From NCBI GenBank assembly GCA_046541575.1, contig JBKHDA010000001.1:24243-88242 (forward strand): a stretch of DNA of 64,000 nt. Direction: 5' to 3'. How positions within the stretch are numbered: the first letter of the stretch is position 1; each line of letters begins with the position of its first letter. Under the pieces are notes generated by a model, which did not search any database, was not told where the DNA came from, and saw only the letters and a list, made by a program, of their open reading frames with translations. A program made the translations under genes and the position numbers. This document shows, one piece after another, positions 7,588 to 61,541 of this stretch. The stretch comes from Halanaerobium sp. (GTDB lineage Bacteria; Bacillota; Halanaerobiia; Halanaerobiales; Halanaerobiaceae).

Positions 7588-7608
7588 TAGTTCAAATAAG
7601 ATAATGAT

Positions 7609-7641
7609 TCTTTAAATTAGTCCAGAGAGGCTAGTAAGGGA
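7609..7641 (+). promoter_or_regulatory. PyrR-binding loop (pyrR leader)
   Basis: TCTTTAAATTAGTCCAGAGAGGCTAGTAAGGGA. Confidence 0.92.
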
Positions 7642-7657
7642 AAATATAAATTTTAGC

Positions 7658-8287
<630 letters not shown>

Positions 8288-52759: not shown

Positions 52760-52789
52760 AAAAAAGGCTCCCTGTTAACAGGGAGCCTT
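52760..52789. terminator. bidirectional terminator
   Basis: AAGGCTCCCTGTT|AACAGGGAGCCTT between convergent genes. Confidence 0.85.
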
Positions 52790-52816: not shown

Positions 52817-53614
52817 TTAAACTGAAAGCAGCATTCGGTCATTATTAAACTTACTACCATGTTTAATTTCAAACATTTTAAGCAATTTTTCTATTGTTAG
52901 ATCATTTTTTTCTTCACCATCAATATCGTAAATAATCTGACCACCATCCATCATAATTAAGCGGTTACCCATTTTGATAGCATCTTCCATATTGTGGGTA
53001 ATCATTAAAGTTGTAATGTTGTTTTCATTCACCAGATCTGCAGTCAACCTCTTTATTTTTATAGCTGTTGCAGGATCTAAAGCAGCTGTATGCTCATCTA
53101 AAAGTAGTAAACGTGGGTTAGCTACAGTGGCCATAAGAAGTGTTAAAGCCTGCCGCTGACCACCTGATAATAGTTTAACCTTAGTAGTTAATCTTTTTTC
53201 TAAACCCAGATCAATCTTTTCTAAATGTTTACGCATGATTTCTCTTTTGTGTTTATTTAGTCCCCATTTAAGTGAAAGGTTATTTGACTTTGAGATTGCA
53301 AGTGAAAGATTTTCTTCAATTGTCATCTCAGGAGATGTTCCGGCTAATGGGTTTTGAAAAACACGGCCAATTTTTTGAGCACATTTATATTCTGTTTTTT
53401 TAGTAATGTTTTCATTATCCAAAATAATGCTTCCATTGTCTACCGGGAAAACACCAGCAATAGAATTTAAAAGAGTTGATTTTCCTGCTCCATTACTCCC
53501 TACAATTGTAATAAAGTCTCCTTCATTAACAGTTAAATCTATTTTTTTAATTGCTACGTTCTCGTTTGGAGTACCTTTGTAAAAAATTTTTTCTAAGTTT
53601 TTGACTTTCAGCAT
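52817..53614 (-). CDS. ABC ATPase of a TrpXYZ-like importer
   Basis: GSNGAGKST, LSGGQRQAL and LDEHTAALDP motifs. Confidence 0.93.
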   Translation of the reverse strand: MLKVKNLEKIFYKGTPNENVAIKKIDLTVNEGDFITIVGSNGAGKSTLLNSIAGVFPVDNGSIILDNENITKKTEYKCAQKIGRVFQNPLAGTSPEMTIEENLSLAISKSNNLSLKWGLNKHKREIMRKHLEKIDLGLEKRLTTKVKLLSGGQRQALTLLMATVANPRLLLLDEHTAALDPATAIKIKRLTADLVNENNITTLMITHNMEDAIKMGNRLIMMDGGQIIYDIDGEEKNDLTIEKLLKMFEIKHGSKFNNDRMLLSV

Positions 53615-53620
53615 ATTTTA

Positions 53621-54487
53621 TCACCTCAATGCCTTTTTTATTCTTGGAGTTGATAAGAAAATTATAACAAGAATTGCAGTTAACAACTTTAAATCGGAAG
53701 CTGCCAGTCCCAGATTGAGTGCAATAGAGATACTAAAACGGTAAAGAATAGACCCTATAATAACACCAATTGTGGCAATTATTATTGATTTTTCCCCGAT
53801 TACAACTTCACCAATAATCACAGAAGCAAGACCGGCTATAATAGTACCAACACCCATATTTACATCTGCAAATCCCTGATACTGACCGACAAGTGCACCT
53901 GATAAGGAAACCAGTGCATTGGAAATGATTAAGCCCAGCATTTTCATTGAGTTAGTGCTAATCCCCATACTTCTAATCATCTGTGGATTATCACCGGTAG
54001 CTCTTAATGCAAAACCTATTTGAGTATTTAAAAATGCATCAAGAACTAATTTGACAGCAGTTATAACTACAATCAGTAAAAGTAAATTGTTCCAGGGATA
54101 GGGCACTCCCATGTCTCTAATAAAAGAAAAAATAGTTCCTTTACCAATTAGCGGAATATTTGGTCTACCCATTATTCTTAAATTAATTGAGTATAAAGAG
54201 GTCATTGTTAAAATACCGGATAAAAGAGGAGCTATTTTTAGCTTGGTATTTAAAAAACCTGTAATTGCTCCAGCAAGTCCACCGGCGATAATAGATGCCC
54301 CCAGAGAATAAAATGGATTCATTCCCATGGTTAATAATCTAGCTGAGATAGCAGCTCCTAAAGGGAGACTGCCGTCAACAGTAAGGTCAGCAAAATCAAG
54401 AATTCTAAAAGATATAAATACACCCAGGGCCATGATCCCAAAAGCCAGACCCTGTTCTAAAGACGTAATTACAAAACTTAGACTCAT
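53621..54487 (-). CDS. ABC permease of a TrpXYZ-like importer
   Basis: FADLTVDGS, YSINLRIMG and RATGDN motifs. Confidence 0.92.
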   Translation of the reverse strand: MSLSFVITSLEQGLAFGIMALGVFISFRILDFADLTVDGSLPLGAAISARLLTMGMNPFYSLGASIIAGGLAGAITGFLNTKLKIAPLLSGILTMTSLYSINLRIMGRPNIPLIGKGTIFSFIRDMGVPYPWNNLLLLIVVITAVKLVLDAFLNTQIGFALRATGDNPQMIRSMGISTNSMKMLGLIISNALVSLSGALVGQYQGFADVNMGVGTIIAGLASVIIGEVVIGEKSIIIATIGVIIGSILYRFSISIALNLGLAASDLKLLTAILVIIFLSTPRIKKALR

Positions 54488-54537
54488 AACACACCTCACA
54501 CCATTTCTAAACTATATATTTTATTAACAATTTCATT

Positions 54538-55518
54538 TTATTCCTGGTTAATTTCTTCATAAGTTTCATCAGCTCTCTCTAATACATCATCCGGGATTTC
54601 CAGATCAAGATTCTCAGCAGCTTTTGTATTTAAATATAATTTTAGTTCATCAGAACTTTCAACAGCCATTTCAGCTGGATTTTCACCATTAAGAACTCGG
54701 GCTGCCATTTTACCGGTTTGAATACCTAATAATTTATAGTCAATTCCTAAAGTTGCAATCGCTCCCTGTTTAACCTGCCCATTTTCTGAGGCAAATACCG
54801 GGATATTGTTTTCATTAGTAATATTTAAAACAGATGGTAAAGCAGAAACAATAATATTGTCAGTTGGTACATAAATTGCATCAACATCTCCAATTAGAGA
54901 GGAGGTAGCCAGACTAACCTCACTACTGTTGCTTACTGTTCCTTCATGCAGTTCAATTCCCATTTCTTCAGCAGTTTCTTTTGCCAGGTCTACCTGGACA
55001 ACTGAATTCACTTCACCTGGATTATAAAGTACTCCGAGGTCAGAAATTTCCGGAAGGAACTCTTTTATTAATTTAACCTGTTCAGCAACCGGATTCATAT
55101 CCGTAGTTCCTGTAAGATTTCCACCGGGAGCTTCCATACTTTCTACTATACCTGCTTCTTCAGGATCAGTAACTGCAGTAAATAATACCGGTGTATCTGA
55201 AATTACATTTGCTGCGGCCTGAGCATTAGGAGTAGCAATTGCTAAAATTAAATCAAGATCATTATCCTTGAACTGTTGAGAAATTGATTGAGCAGTAGAA
55301 AAATCGGCCTGAGCGTTTTGAGTATTAAACTCAACCTCATCTTCACTAAATCCTTCTTCTGCTAAACCTTCAATAAAGCCTTCACGTGCTGCATCTAAAG
55401 CTGGATGCTCAACAAACTGTGAAATACCTATCTTATATTCCTGAGCACCTGCAGTTAAAGCGGTGGTTAAAATCAACATAAAAGTTAACACTAATACAAT
55501 TAAAAGTTCTTTTTTCAT
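54538..55518 (-). CDS. TrpX-like (aromatic amino acid-type) ABC binding protein
   Basis: QFVEHPALD, AIATP, AVTDP, PTDN and GIQTG motifs; start ATG 55518 behind AGGGGAG. Confidence 0.9.
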   Translation of the reverse strand: MKKELLIVLVLTFMLILTTALTAGAQEYKIGISQFVEHPALDAAREGFIEGLAEEGFSEDEVEFNTQNAQADFSTAQSISQQFKDNDLDLILAIATPNAQAAANVISDTPVLFTAVTDPEEAGIVESMEAPGGNLTGTTDMNPVAEQVKLIKEFLPEISDLGVLYNPGEVNSVVQVDLAKETAEEMGIELHEGTVSNSSEVSLATSSLIGDVDAIYVPTDNIIVSALPSVLNITNENNIPVFASENGQVKQGAIATLGIDYKLLGIQTGKMAARVLNGENPAEMAVESSDELKLYLNTKAAENLDLEIPDDVLERADETYEEINQE

Positions 55519-55700
55519 TTTTACTCCCCTTTCTAACTGGTAGTGGGGATAATAATAAAAAAACACTCCTGGTGGAGTGTTAAATAGCTTTCAGCTAAAT
55601 AGTTTAAAATAGGGTATAAATGCCCCTTGATTAAACTAATAGCTCAGCTTTCCCTACAAATTTCTCCTACCGTATTACCATGCTACCAGTTATTTTATTT
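55519..55700 (-). promoter_or_regulatory. structured leader/attenuator of the TrpXYZ-like operon
   Basis: Terminator AACACTCC-ACCA-GGAGTGTT plus U-tract (55556-55581); anti-SD TCCCC; 10-bp long-range inverted repeat 55534-55543 / 55683-55692. Confidence 0.75.
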
Positions 55701-55705
55701 TCTTT

Positions 55706-55735
55706 ATTATACTATTATAATAGCACTTTTGTCAA
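55706..55735 (-). promoter_or_regulatory. sigma-A promoter of the TrpXYZ-like operon
   Basis: TTGACA, 18-bp spacer, TATAAT on the minus strand. Confidence 0.75.
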
Positions 55736-55775: not shown

Positions 55776-56198
55776 TTAAGACTGGTCATCCAGTAATGAA
55801 CGATGGCTTAATCCAACAGTAACTTCATTTAAATTAAACATACCTACACCAAAAAATACAGCAACAACAATATGTTCTCCACTTCGGGCAACACCAATCT
55901 TACCTCCGACATTTAACCCCATTGTTCTGGGCATGATCTGAGTAACTGCATCATGCGCTGCCCCGGCAACTGCTCCCTGAGCAACGTGGGATTCATTTAT
56001 TATATTTTCTCTTTTAGCAGCAATAACTGCTCTTTCAATAATTTCAGGTACTGATTTATTAAATTCTCCCCCAAAATCAACAGCTGCAGTATTTATATCA
56101 TCAGCTGCAAAATCTTTTTTTAATTCTTTTTCTTCACTTCGACTTGATATTGCCATTTTGATAGCTGCTTTTGCAGTTTCTAAACTATTATGTTCCAT
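55776..56198 (-). CDS. hutP: HutP-family RNA-binding protein (variant without the His ligands)
   Basis: 140 aa; AAVDFGG...IERAVIAAKRE...GAVAGAAHDA...GGKIGVARSGEHIVVAVFFGVG...GLSHR fits the clostridial HutP family. Confidence 0.85.
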   Translation of the reverse strand: MEHNSLETAKAAIKMAISSRSEEKELKKDFAADDINTAAVDFGGEFNKSVPEIIERAVIAAKRENIINESHVAQGAVAGAAHDAVTQIMPRTMGLNVGGKIGVARSGEHIVVAVFFGVGMFNLNEVTVGLSHRSLLDDQS

Positions 56199-56426
56199 AA
56201 TTTTTCCTCCTCTGTATTTGTTGTCTTAATTATAGCAGAGATTTTAGCTAAAGTGAAATCAAATAAGTAAATAATTATTGATTTAAAAATTTTTTTATTT
56301 TAACTATATAAAATTGAGCTTTAATTGCATAATTAGCTGATATAATTTATAATATATTAATGTAATTATTTTCAAATCAATTTTCTGCTGATAAAATTAA
56401 TTTTAATTATAAAGTATTAAAAAAGT

Positions 56427-58316: not shown

Positions 58317-59642
58317 CTAAATTGTTTGATAGATATTAAAAAGCATAATAAATAATACGGCTGCCGGTACAATGTATTTTAAAAAGAGAGAATAAGTATT
58401 TCCAATTTTAAAACGACTGTTTTTATTTGCTTCTTCCACTGCATTTTTGCTGCCCCAGATATGACCGACAAAAATTGAGGTTAAAATTCCTCCTGTTGGT
58501 AAGAAAATAGAGTTGGAAAACCAGTCATAGGTATCAAGCAGATCCATTCCTAAAAAGCTGAAGTTAGAAAATGAGCTGTAACCTAAAAGTGGTGGAATTC
58601 CTACCAAAAATATAACAAAACCCATTAAATAAGAAGCTTTTTTTCTCTTCCAATCATATTCATCAATTAAAAATGCTACTACAACTTCCAGCATTGAGAT
58701 AGAAGAAGTTAAAGCTGCAATTGTAAGCAGTAAAAAGAAGATTAATGAGAAAAAAGTGCCAAAAGGCATTTGGGTAAAAACAGCAGGCAGAGTAATAAAA
58801 GTTAAACCAGGGCCAGATGCTGGATCAAGCCCAAAGGCAAAAACAGCTGGAAAAATTGCAAAACCTGCCAGTAAAGCTACAGCTGTATCAAAAATTAGTA
58901 CATAAGCTGCACTTTCATTAATGCTTTCTTTTTTACTTAAATAGCTGCCGTAGGTAATCATAGCTCCCATACCGAGGCTTAAGGTGAAAAATGCCTGTGA
59001 AATTGCATCAGCAAAGGTCTGAAAATTAATTGCTGAAAAATCTGGTTTTAGATAGAAATTGAGTCCTGCTGCAGCGCCATCCAGTGTAACTGAGCGAATG
59101 ATTAATAAAAAAATAATTCCGAATAAAATTGGCATCAAAAATTTAACAAGTTTTTGAATTCCATTGACTACGCCGGCACCAATAACAGCGATTGTTAAGA
59201 ACATAAAAATACCATGCCATAAAATCGGCTCTGTCAGACTGCTGATGTGAGCCTCGAAAATTTGGGGGAAATTACTTTCAGCAGTAAAAGTCAGTGATTT
59301 AAAGATATAAGATATTCCCCAGCCGGCAATAACAGAATAGTAACTTAAAATAACAAAACCTGAGAGAACACCAAGTGCTCCAACCAGAGGCCAGGCAGTG
59401 TCAGGTGCCATTTTTTTAAAAGCGCCAATGGGGTTTTTCTGAGTAATCCTTCCCAGAGACATTTCAGAAACTAAAATTGGATAACCAATAAATAAGATTG
59501 CTGCTAAATAAATTAAAATAAAAATTGCTCCACCATTTGTCCCCGTAATAAAAGGAAAACGCCAGATATTACCAAGGCCGATGGCCGATCCAGATGCAGC
59601 CAGAATGAAGCCAAGTCTGGAAGTCCAGTTTTCTCTTTCCAT
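58317..59642 (-). CDS. NSS/SNF sodium-dependent amino-acid transporter (MhsT-like)
   Basis: GSAIGLGNIWRFP, QAFFTLSLGMG and GPGLTF motifs. Confidence 0.93.
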   Translation of the reverse strand: MERENWTSRLGFILAASGSAIGLGNIWRFPFITGTNGGAIFILIYLAAILFIGYPILVSEMSLGRITQKNPIGAFKKMAPDTAWPLVGALGVLSGFVILSYYSVIAGWGISYIFKSLTFTAESNFPQIFEAHISSLTEPILWHGIFMFLTIAVIGAGVVNGIQKLVKFLMPILFGIIFLLIIRSVTLDGAAAGLNFYLKPDFSAINFQTFADAISQAFFTLSLGMGAMITYGSYLSKKESINESAAYVLIFDTAVALLAGFAIFPAVFAFGLDPASGPGLTFITLPAVFTQMPFGTFFSLIFFLLLTIAALTSSISMLEVVVAFLIDEYDWKRKKASYLMGFVIFLVGIPPLLGYSSFSNFSFLGMDLLDTYDWFSNSIFLPTGGILTSIFVGHIWGSKNAVEEANKNSRFKIGNTYSLFLKYIVPAAVLFIMLFNIYQTI

Positions 59643-59875: not shown

Positions 59876-60022
59876 CCTGATTAGTTTAGTTGAGAAGGAT
59901 ACAATCTTTAGATTAGCAAAGTAATAATAATTTAGCAGTAGTTAATGATTGTATCAGAGTAGAGAGCAGTTGATATCTTAATTTTTTTTAATTTTAGCTG
60001 AGTTGAGCCAGGATAAATCAGG
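59876..60022 (+). promoter_or_regulatory. structured 5' leader with clustered NAG triplets
   Basis: Five clusters of three NAG triplets; stems CCTGATT / AATCAGG and GATACAATC / GATTGTATC. Confidence 0.7.
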
Positions 60023-60065: not shown

Positions 60066-61541
60066 ATGGAACAGAATCGTGAACAATGGGGAAGTAGAGT
60101 TGGTTTTGTTTTGGCAACAATTGGTTCAGCAGTTGGACTGGGTAATATCTGGCGTTTTTCTTATATGGCTTATGAAAATGGTGGAGGTGCCTTTTTATTT
60201 CCGTATATTTTTGCTCTGCTGACAGCGGGAATACCTCTGATATTACTGGAAATGGGCTTTGGATTTTTTACCAGAACTTCAGCACCTAGTTCATTTCGAA
60301 AGGTTGGTAAAAAGTTTGAATGGGTAGGCTGGTGGTCAGTACTGGTGGCCTTTACAGTTACAGTCTATTATATTGTTATTATTGCCTGGAGTCTATTATT
60401 TGTTTTTAAATCATTTAATCTGGGCTGGACTGCTAACCCGGAAGCCTACTTTTTTGGAGATTTTCTTCAGTTTTCAGGTAGTGCTTTTGATCTAGGTGGA
60501 ATTCAGTGGCCAATATTCTTAGCTTTAATTGGGGTCTGGTTAATTAATTATGTCATCATTGCCGGTGGAGTACAAAAAGGTATAGAAAAAGCAAGTAAAA
60601 TATTTATGCCGCTTTTGGCAGCAATGCTTTTAATTATTGTATTTAGAGGCTTAACTTTACCCGGATCAATGGATGGAGTAAGGGCATTTCTGGCACCTGA
60701 TTTCAGCAGAATTTTTGAACTGGATATCTGGCTGGACGCCTATGGACAGATTTTCTTTTCCCTAAGTCTGGGTTTTGGAATTATGATTGCTTATTCCAGT
60801 TATCTACCTAAAAAATCAGATGTTATTAAAAACGGTACAATTGCAGCTTTTGCAGATGCAATTTTTGCTATTGTAGCCGGACTTGGTGTTTTTGGTATCC
60901 TGGGCTACATGGCACAGACTCAGGGAGTACCAGTCGCAGATGTTGCAACTTCAGGTATTGGATTGGCATTTATTGCTTTCCCACAGGCAATCAATTTATT
61001 ACCTGCTTTACCACAACTTTTTGGATTATTATTTTTCTTATCCCTTACAGTTGCCGGTCTGTCATCAAGTGTTTCCTTAATTGAATCTGTAGTTTCAGCT
61101 TTAATTGATAATTTTAGTTTAAGCCGCACAAAGGCTGTTACAATGGTTTCAATTGTAGGATTCTTAATGGGATTACCAATGGTTACAGAGGGTGGTCTGG
61201 CGATTTTAGATATTTTTGATCACTTTATTAATATTTTTGGTCTGTTAACTGTTGGATTTGTAGAAATGCTTGTTTTAAGTTATGCTTTTGATCTTGATAA
61301 AATTAAAGATAACATGAATCCAAGTTCTGACTATCAAGTTGGTCCAACCTGGAAAGCTCTAGTTAAGTTTGTCAGTCCTATTTTAATTGGTTTTGGTTTA
61401 ATCCAGAATGTAATATCAGAATTCGCTACAGTTTATGGTGGCTATGCACTGGCAGAAGTTATTACTTTTGGCTGGGTAGCAGTAGCTTTAGTACTTTTAT
61501 TTGCAATTTATCTCGGCAAACGAGAAAATACTATAGTTTAA
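60066..61541 (+). CDS. NSS/SNF sodium-dependent amino-acid transporter
   Basis: GSAVGLGNIWRF, QIFFSLSLGFG and GIGLAFIAFP motifs; ATG behind AGGAGG. Confidence 0.94.
   Translation: MEQNREQWGSRVGFVLATIGSAVGLGNIWRFSYMAYENGGGAFLFPYIFALLTAGIPLILLEMGFGFFTRTSAPSSFRKVGKKFEWVGWWSVLVAFTVTVYYIVIIAWSLLFVFKSFNLGWTANPEAYFFGDFLQFSGSAFDLGGIQWPIFLALIGVWLINYVIIAGGVQKGIEKASKIFMPLLAAMLLIIVFRGLTLPGSMDGVRAFLAPDFSRIFELDIWLDAYGQIFFSLSLGFGIMIAYSSYLPKKSDVIKNGTIAAFADAIFAIVAGLGVFGILGYMAQTQGVPVADVATSGIGLAFIAFPQAINLLPALPQLFGLLFFLSLTVAGLSSSVSLIESVVSALIDNFSLSRTKAVTMVSIVGFLMGLPMVTEGGLAILDIFDHFINIFGLLTVGFVEMLVLSYAFDLDKIKDNMNPSSDYQVGPTWKALVKFVSPILIGFGLIQNVISEFATVYGGYALAEVITFGWVAVALVLLFAIYLGKRENTIV

Follow-up and report, generated by a model that had tools for sequence, protein, structure and literature searches.

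The window analysed here, a stretch of 64,000 nucleotides from Halanaerobium sp., carries on its minus strand a hutP-like gene (55776–56198) encoding a protein of 140 amino acids, a predicted RNA-binding regulator that Pfam, AlphaFold and alignments assign to a clostridial subfamily of the HutP fold. The gene adjoins the operon of a PF04392 ABC importer (52817–55518, minus strand), which comprises genes for a substrate-binding protein (54538–55518), a permease (53621–54499) and an ATPase (52817–53614) and ends at a terminator (52764–52789). A perfect sigma-A promoter (TTGACA-18-TATAAT; 55706–55735, minus strand), kept in relatives, precedes the operon; for the hutP-like gene itself there is a possible promoter with an extended -10 element (10/12 consensus; 56229–56257, minus strand), such matches being no commoner than chance in the region. 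At a distance of 2–4 kb, past an mntP-like gene and rlmD, lie two NSS symporter genes, one with its ATG at 60066 and its stop at 61541, the other divergent from it (58317–59642, minus strand) and without a period-8 or period-5 repeat in its upstream region. An earlier note on this DNA had described the neighbours as amino acid importers and the window as free of histidine-utilization genes, and both descriptions hold: the PF04392 importer is adjacent, the two NSS genes are close by, and HutH went unmatched in the window and equally in the source genome, which is 80% complete, and in the 80 best related loci. Urocanase was likewise not found in the source genome at this level of completeness.

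Assignment to the HutP family, as proposed in that note, is borne out by profile and structure comparison alike. The Pfam model PF09021 matches the protein with 155 bits (cut-off 25), and the AlphaFold model (pLDDT 91) superimposes on the solved HutP chains of Bacillus subtilis (PDB 1VEA, 1WMQ, 1WPV) both in Foldseek (E = 6.6e-8, TM 0.75, 14–18% identity) and in VIA (Z 16.7, rmsd 2.3–2.4 over 128–130 residues; next unrelated fold Z 7.0). The window protein is thus a member of the HutP structural family. PDB sequence searches with the protein or a 75-sequence profile did not reach the solved HutP chains, and the NCBIfam equivalog model for histidine-utilization HutP (NF002838) matched neither the window protein nor two relatives; with the same model, a canonical HutP whose gene precedes hutH (locus L117) obtained 256 bits (cut-off 155). 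The hutP-like sequence has 2617 protein matches at E ≤ 0.001, its closest named relatives being Halanaerobium proteins, and 200 of the 301 Bacillota genomes sampled have a PF09021 match, a count that takes in canonical HutP and paralogues. Besides the window gene, the source genome encodes two further family members, a fusion of CBS and HutP and a protein whose gene is next to that of a PF01497 binding protein. The two paralogues form long separate branches in our tree, whose saturated inner branches resolve four distinct clades but not their order, and they reside in unrelated gene contexts. The fusion of a CBS pair to a HutP domain (L003:1093–1884, contig C63 of the source genome) directly follows ispD-ispF, recurs in another genome of the genus (L121) and is possibly a nucleotide-sensing HutP variant. 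The divergent third gene (L002:1474–1947, contig C13), located after an NAD-synthetase-like gene and the PF01497 binding protein gene, has kept C-terminal histidines and matches NF002838 weakly (30.7 bits).

The histidines His73, His77 and His138 of B. subtilis HutP are what we take to be its metal ligands. With the canonical L117 protein and the 1VEA sequence as bridge, and positions counted in 1VEA, MAFFT mapped H73 to G75, H77 to G79 and H138 to E125 of the window protein, along with Y69 to H71 and E81 to D83. In the 121 subfamily proteins compared (the window protein plus its 120 best homologues, one canonical HutP row having been subtracted from the alignment totals), both glycines, G75 and G79, are kept throughout, and position 125 is occupied by E in 113 and by D in 8. 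Replacement of the three histidines by G, G and N, as read in the earlier note from a manual alignment, is therefore correct for the two glycines and one residue off for the third, which is E125 and not N124; in none of the 121 proteins does the MAFFT alignment retain a histidine at any of the three positions. A weak, non-significant hhalign comparison with one canonical HutP (E = 0.096) places H73 against the invariant H71 via a four-residue gap, in view of which the mapping of H73 to G75 may not be fully closed. Invariant polar residues of its own (E55, H71, Q87, K100, H132 and R133) make it appear possible that the subfamily has a rebuilt ligand or metal site.

The neighbourhood survey suggested in the earlier note, conducted over up to 6 kb at the best 80 of 551 confirmed related loci, placed the subfamily away from hut genes (HutH in 0/80): aroH, a PF04392 binding protein, aroF, tyrA, aroA or trpE lies near the hutP-like gene in 59 of these 80 loci (aroH 37, PF04392 21, aroF 7, trpE 7, tyrA 6, aroA 4). 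The counts for cmk and for NSS genes were 35 and 5, respectively, among the same 80 loci.

A candidate binding site had been suspected in the importer leader (55519–55700), and it is here that we found three copies of an 8-nt unit, (G)GUA(G/A)NAY, at 55664–55687. In transcript order (minus strand throughout), this predicted binding site is followed by a variable spacer hairpin (55586–55649), predicted to bring the repeat end beside the 5' arm of the terminator; by an intrinsic terminator (55554–55581; stem 55581–55562, then a U tract), for whose 5' arm pairing with the repeat end is predicted in nascent RNA; and by a predicted translational switch (55524–55548) made up of an anti-SD (55548–55545), an anti-repeat (55543–55536) and the SD (55529–55524). 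A segment complementary to the first repeat unit thus lies after the terminator, and then comes a C4/G-rich stem able to cover the SD. The leader folds with a z-score of -3.96, and no Rfam match was obtained for it or for 12 related loci. RNA runs gave contigs of related strains only; in three of four runs, contigs of 135–145 nt extending from 55557 to 55691 or 55701 end in the terminator U tract, but these ends may reflect strain variation and are left out of the evidence.

NAG triplets are present in the importer leader as well as in that of the symporter, in agreement with the earlier description of both as NAG-rich; what marks the importer site is the 8-nt repeat, though, and not generic NAG clustering. 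As dinucleotide shuffling largely fixes the NAG count, it is the spacing alone that can be tested. The importer leader has two GUA(G/A) pairs of period 8 versus 0.02 in shuffles (p = 0.0005) and no pair of period 5, while period 7, the spacing of B. subtilis HutP sites, is not enriched in either leader (p = 0.38 and 0.53). Period 7 and generic NAG richness were thereby rejected as the leader feature, the spacing being 8 in the importer and 5 in the symporter leader. The genome-wide leader scan that the earlier note had recommended, run by repeat spacing, identified the triple repeat as the genome's best period-8 site and its only strict-pattern match, and period-5 clusters turned up at trp genes.

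The symporter leader is most likely a TRAP target and as such separate from the HutP-like system. Its (G/U)AG repeats of period 5 (59882–60011, plus strand), likely TRAP sites, amount to 8 pairs in the segment 59876–60022 versus 1.7 in shuffles (p = 0.0005), with 2-nt spacers; the corresponding leaders of three relatives have 7–9 such pairs, and a period-8 unit was found neither in this leader nor in those of the three relatives. TRAP (mtrB) is encoded in the source genome (PF02081, 130 bits, contig C28). Scanning the genome gave 21 windows with at least four period-5 pairs, of which the two strongest lie before trpP and before an ORF called trpE-like on the basis of its sequence; the leaders of trpB and of the NSS symporter are among the six strongest. 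The idea that the HutP-like protein also controls the symporter leader is not supported, TRAP being present and the period-5 repeats being kept in the three relatives; a TRAP gene that explains the sites is what the earlier note itself had named as refuting its reading, and for this leader that is the outcome. TRAP does not in turn account for the importer leader, which is devoid of period-5 pairs and whose repeat recurs in TRAP-less genomes. Searching the PDB did not reveal what the symporter transports. Also scored in the period-5 scan were AG-rich repeats before ilvC-like and ilvB-like genes of the source genome (contig C6, approximately 51860–51700 and 54335, minus strand).

Members of the Halanaerobiales, Thermoanaerobacterales and Clostridiaceae have the 8-nt repeat before the same importer, and five such genomes of the Clostridiaceae gave no TRAP match. 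When both strands of the 80 best loci were searched, period 8 was found 31 times in sense and once in antisense orientation, and periods 7 and 5 once each. A strict 20-nt pattern, scanned over the 301 Bacillota genomes, yielded 48 sites in 43 genomes: 41 of the 200 HutP-positive (PF09021) versus 2 of the 101 HutP-negative genomes, with the proviso that relatives are not independent. Broken down by class, these are 27/124 genomes with HutP and TRAP, 14/76 with HutP only, 0/21 with TRAP only and 2/80 with neither, which means that the strict repeat does not need TRAP. Forty-three of the 48 sites are on the sense strand before aroF (14), aroH (3), a hutP-like gene with aroH (2), aroA (1) or importers of the PF04392 (13), DctP (7), SSF (2) and LivK-like (1) types; the five sites out of context include all three of the two HutP-less genomes. 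The subfamily envisaged in the earlier note, unconnected to hut and tied to amino acid import, is in line with these targets, and its regulon has to be widened to aromatic biosynthesis.

A held-out set was drawn from 35 HutP-positive genomes without a strict match and 55 HutP-negative genomes, 30 aroF loci being taken from each group, and the 1.5 kb before aroF were scored with a matrix built from 41 distinct strict sites. At 14 bits or more, 18/30 HutP-positive versus 0/30 HutP-negative loci had a site, and at 18 bits 14 versus 0, both thresholds having been chosen after the fact; the best HutP-negative score was 6.3 and the antisense count 0/30. We relied on antisense and HutP-negative controls because the repeat reads almost alike backwards, making reversed sequences unsuitable. 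No site was present at 12 of the 30 held-out HutP-positive aroF loci, 159 of the 200 HutP-positive genomes lack a strict site, and most hutP-aroH-cmk clusters showed no repeat upstream; in several genomes, the repeat precedes the hutP-like gene itself. In the source genome, DAHP_synth_1 obtained a single match, to a KdsA-like gene that belongs to a KDO cluster. Taken as a whole, the control system appears to be widespread in anaerobic Firmicutes. Six Clostridiaceae loci (L026, L031, L035, L041, L067, L072) have a second copy of two repeat units over the SD and start codon of the binding-protein gene, which might serve the oligomer's other face as a further site.

As to the effector, the binding proteins encoded at repeat loci are informative. 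Tyrosine specificity in the PF04392 family has been tied to Glu263 and Tyr279, according to the accessible part of the source (PMC6816091). For the binding protein of the window, the nearest structure is 6HNI (E = 3.6e-79), the tyrosine-binding CD0873, with which it has both specificity residues in common (family structures with Phe and Trp are 3LKV and 3LFT); it scores 316 with the NCBIfam TrpX model, below the cut-off of 390, and is a predicted tyrosine binder. The Glu/Tyr pair is found in 35 of 36 PF04392 proteins at repeat loci, some of them close kin, with the second binding protein of one operon as the exception, and the Ala of the Phe or Trp type occurs in none of the 36. The trpE leaders beside hutP-like genes carry period-5 sites in 6/6 loci. 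Among the targets are pheA-like genes, so that the biosynthetic targets alone do not single out tyrosine. Judged from the binding-protein signature, the effector of the HutP-like protein would be tyrosine, perhaps together with phenylalanine.

For the direction of control, we considered leader geometry and predicted folding. A terminator follows the repeat in 44 of 56 leaders, and four terminator-less sites are located at the SD, 29–37 nt ahead of the start codon. With the repeat blocked, the terminator formed in 43 of the 44 leaders; with the repeat free, it was absent in 13 and kept at equilibrium in 31, including that of the window (0.91). In the nascent fold of the window leader, the repeat end pairs with the terminator 5' arm to give an antiterminator, and the first four SD bases changed from about 0.5–0.6 unpaired to 0 on blocking of the repeat. 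Antiterminator pairing was better than with shuffled repeats in only 4/44 leaders, and nascent pairing was no better than in shuffles (14/39). When cognate and swapped pairing were compared, own partners were favoured in 27/39 cases (p = 0.007 and 0.003), a result confounded by GC content and affected by a few misassigned hairpins. Repression is probably the output, a view that draws mainly on the geometry and the nature of the targets: with genes of synthesis and uptake as targets, repression rather than antitermination is to be predicted.

We regard it as fairly likely (with a probability of about 0.6) that the HutP-fold protein without the three Bacillus histidines acts as a tyrosine-activated repressor on the triple 8-nt repeat of the adjacent, predicted tyrosine importer. 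From its fold and the three-unit repeat we infer a homohexamer with two three-fold RNA faces, one of which would bind three GUA(G/A) units spaced by 8, comparable to HutP on three NAG units spaced by 7. As long as the repeat is free, its 3' end would pair with the terminator 5' arm in nascent RNA and its 5' part with the segment beside the SD, such that the operon is transcribed and translated. Once the repeat is bound, the terminator and the SD-sequestering stem would form and shut expression off, which is how TRAP acts and the reverse of what HutP does. TRAP would handle the tryptophan genes of the same genome, probably including the symporter at 60066.

The predicted logic has much in common with that of TRAP, where an oligomer activated by an amino acid and bound to UAG-type repeats stands in the way of an antiterminator and favours sequestration of the SD; TRAP differs in protein fold and in its many units at period 5, whereas here three units at period 8 would serve the Tyr/Phe branch, also in TRAP-less genomes. 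With HutP of B. subtilis the system shares, besides the fold, a candidate site of three UAG-core units and a target of amino acid metabolism beside the gene. The window protein is, however, only 14–21% identical to it, has the three histidines replaced and is neither recognized by NF002838 nor accompanied by hut genes. The sites differ as well: that of hut, of period 7, lies within the terminator arms (PMC2425495 and PMC12591593, accessible part), whereas the window site has period 8 and is upstream of the terminator, and the antitermination exerted by HutP contrasts with the predicted repression of synthesis and uptake. A HutP fold and TRAP-like logic would here go together with a new repeat and probably a new ligand; in the literature searched, which most subscription journals lie outside, no description of the HutP subfamily or of the 8-nt repeat was found, and the main text of PMC5737381, as far as available, is without mention of HutP.

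Other explanations have to be weighed against a tyrosine-activated repressor. Protein and RNA site could be the same and the signal another one, such as phenylalanine, chorismate or prephenate, or there could be ligand-free binding. The targets, with aroH, aroF-pheA-like and aroF-tyrA operons as well as DctP, SSF and LivK-like importers among them, and the presence of aroH at 37/80 of the best loci leave room for this, which we nevertheless consider unlikely, as the near-uniform tyrosine signature of the PF04392 proteins stands against it and joint repression of synthesis and uptake fits an end product. Improbable, in our estimate, is that the repeat is read by another factor of similar distribution (another RNA-binding protein, a HutP paralogue or a DNA-binding repressor recognizing direct repeats), the hutP-like gene being simply a long-standing aro neighbour. 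Linkage and co-occurrence are indeed indirect, the strict site is confined to about a fifth (41/200) of the HutP-positive genomes, the family often belongs to a housekeeping cluster with cmk, and the source genome has two HutP paralogues. Such a reader would have to be reconciled, though, with three UAG-core units that match the known HutP binding mode (PMC2425495, in the part available), with sites restricted to the sense strand and coupled to terminators or the SD, with the repeat also preceding the hutP-like gene, and with paralogues on long separate branches in unrelated contexts.

A switch that works without any protein, be it a Phe/Tyr leader-peptide attenuator of the uORF-12/uORF-13 type, a T-box or a new riboswitch, seems very improbable to us. 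The aromatic amino acid attenuators of the types uORF-12 and uORF-13, described in the accessible part of Stav et al. 2019 (PMC6429828), resemble the repeat leaders in being terminator leaders before aroF, tyrA and amino acid importers in Clostridia and Negativicutes, with uORF-13 occurring in the same taxa; an AUG is often located within the repeat, and a partial overlap of members is possible. These uORFs encode F/Y-rich peptides, as the accessible part of the source has it, and the repeat leaders do not: in 1 of 43 is the U tract preceded by a uORF that has an SD and adjacent F/Y codons, and the AUG alternates with ACG. Genuine F/Y-rich peptide leaders before aroF (13/14 loci of one Clostridiaceae genus) lack the period-8 repeat, the window leader and 12 related loci went unmatched in Rfam while nine T-boxes (RF00230) were identified elsewhere in the genome and none in the window, and the conserved part is the unstructured repeat. 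Least credible of all is control of both the ABC and the NSS symporter leaders by the one HutP-like protein through NAG clusters. UAG and GAG triplets in both leaders and the position of both amino acid importer genes within 4 kb speak for it. Against it stand the spacing of the symporter leader, which is 5 without any period-8 unit in this genome as in the three relatives, the two strongest period-5 clusters of this TRAP-encoding genome, which lie before trpE and trpP, with trpB in the top six, and the rarity (5/80) of NSS genes near hutP-like genes.

There is a broader view to which we would give even odds, namely that most 'HutP' proteins of Bacillota do not regulate histidine genes and are instead a tyrosine-sensing counterpart of TRAP, with a rebuilt pocket and an 8-nt GGUAG repeat, shutting off shikimate entry, Tyr/Phe synthesis and tyrosine uptake; the HutP of Bacillus, its output reversed, would then be exceptional. 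PF09021 is named for histidine utilization and present in two-thirds (200/301) of the genomes, yet the loci examined are without hut genes; if true, a large, mis-annotated family would gain an effector, an RNA site and a regulon. Many anaerobic Firmicutes would then have a fourth mechanism for controlling Tyr/Phe synthesis and uptake, beside T-boxes, TRAP and leader peptides, and a single fold would turn out to have changed its ligand, the spacing of its repeat and the sign of its output. Substrates for unassigned DctP and SSF importers would also be predicted by the repeat.

The repeat-led importers of the DctP (L122–L126, L135, L159), SSF (L128, L166) and LivK-like (L138) types are candidates for the uptake of aromatic amino acids or aromatic acids. 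The F/Y-rich leader peptides mentioned above, 41–49 amino acids long and with SD and terminator, lie upstream of aroF at 13 of 14 loci (L231–L240, L242, L244, L247, L251) and fit the published description of uORF-13; where genomes were checked, it is the tyrosine importer that has the period-8 repeat instead. A uORF before aroF has also been described for Acholeplasma (PMC8632094, accessible part). Elsewhere in the window, at 1191–1319 and 7605–7693, there are two PyrR binding-site leaders that score above the Rfam cut-off.
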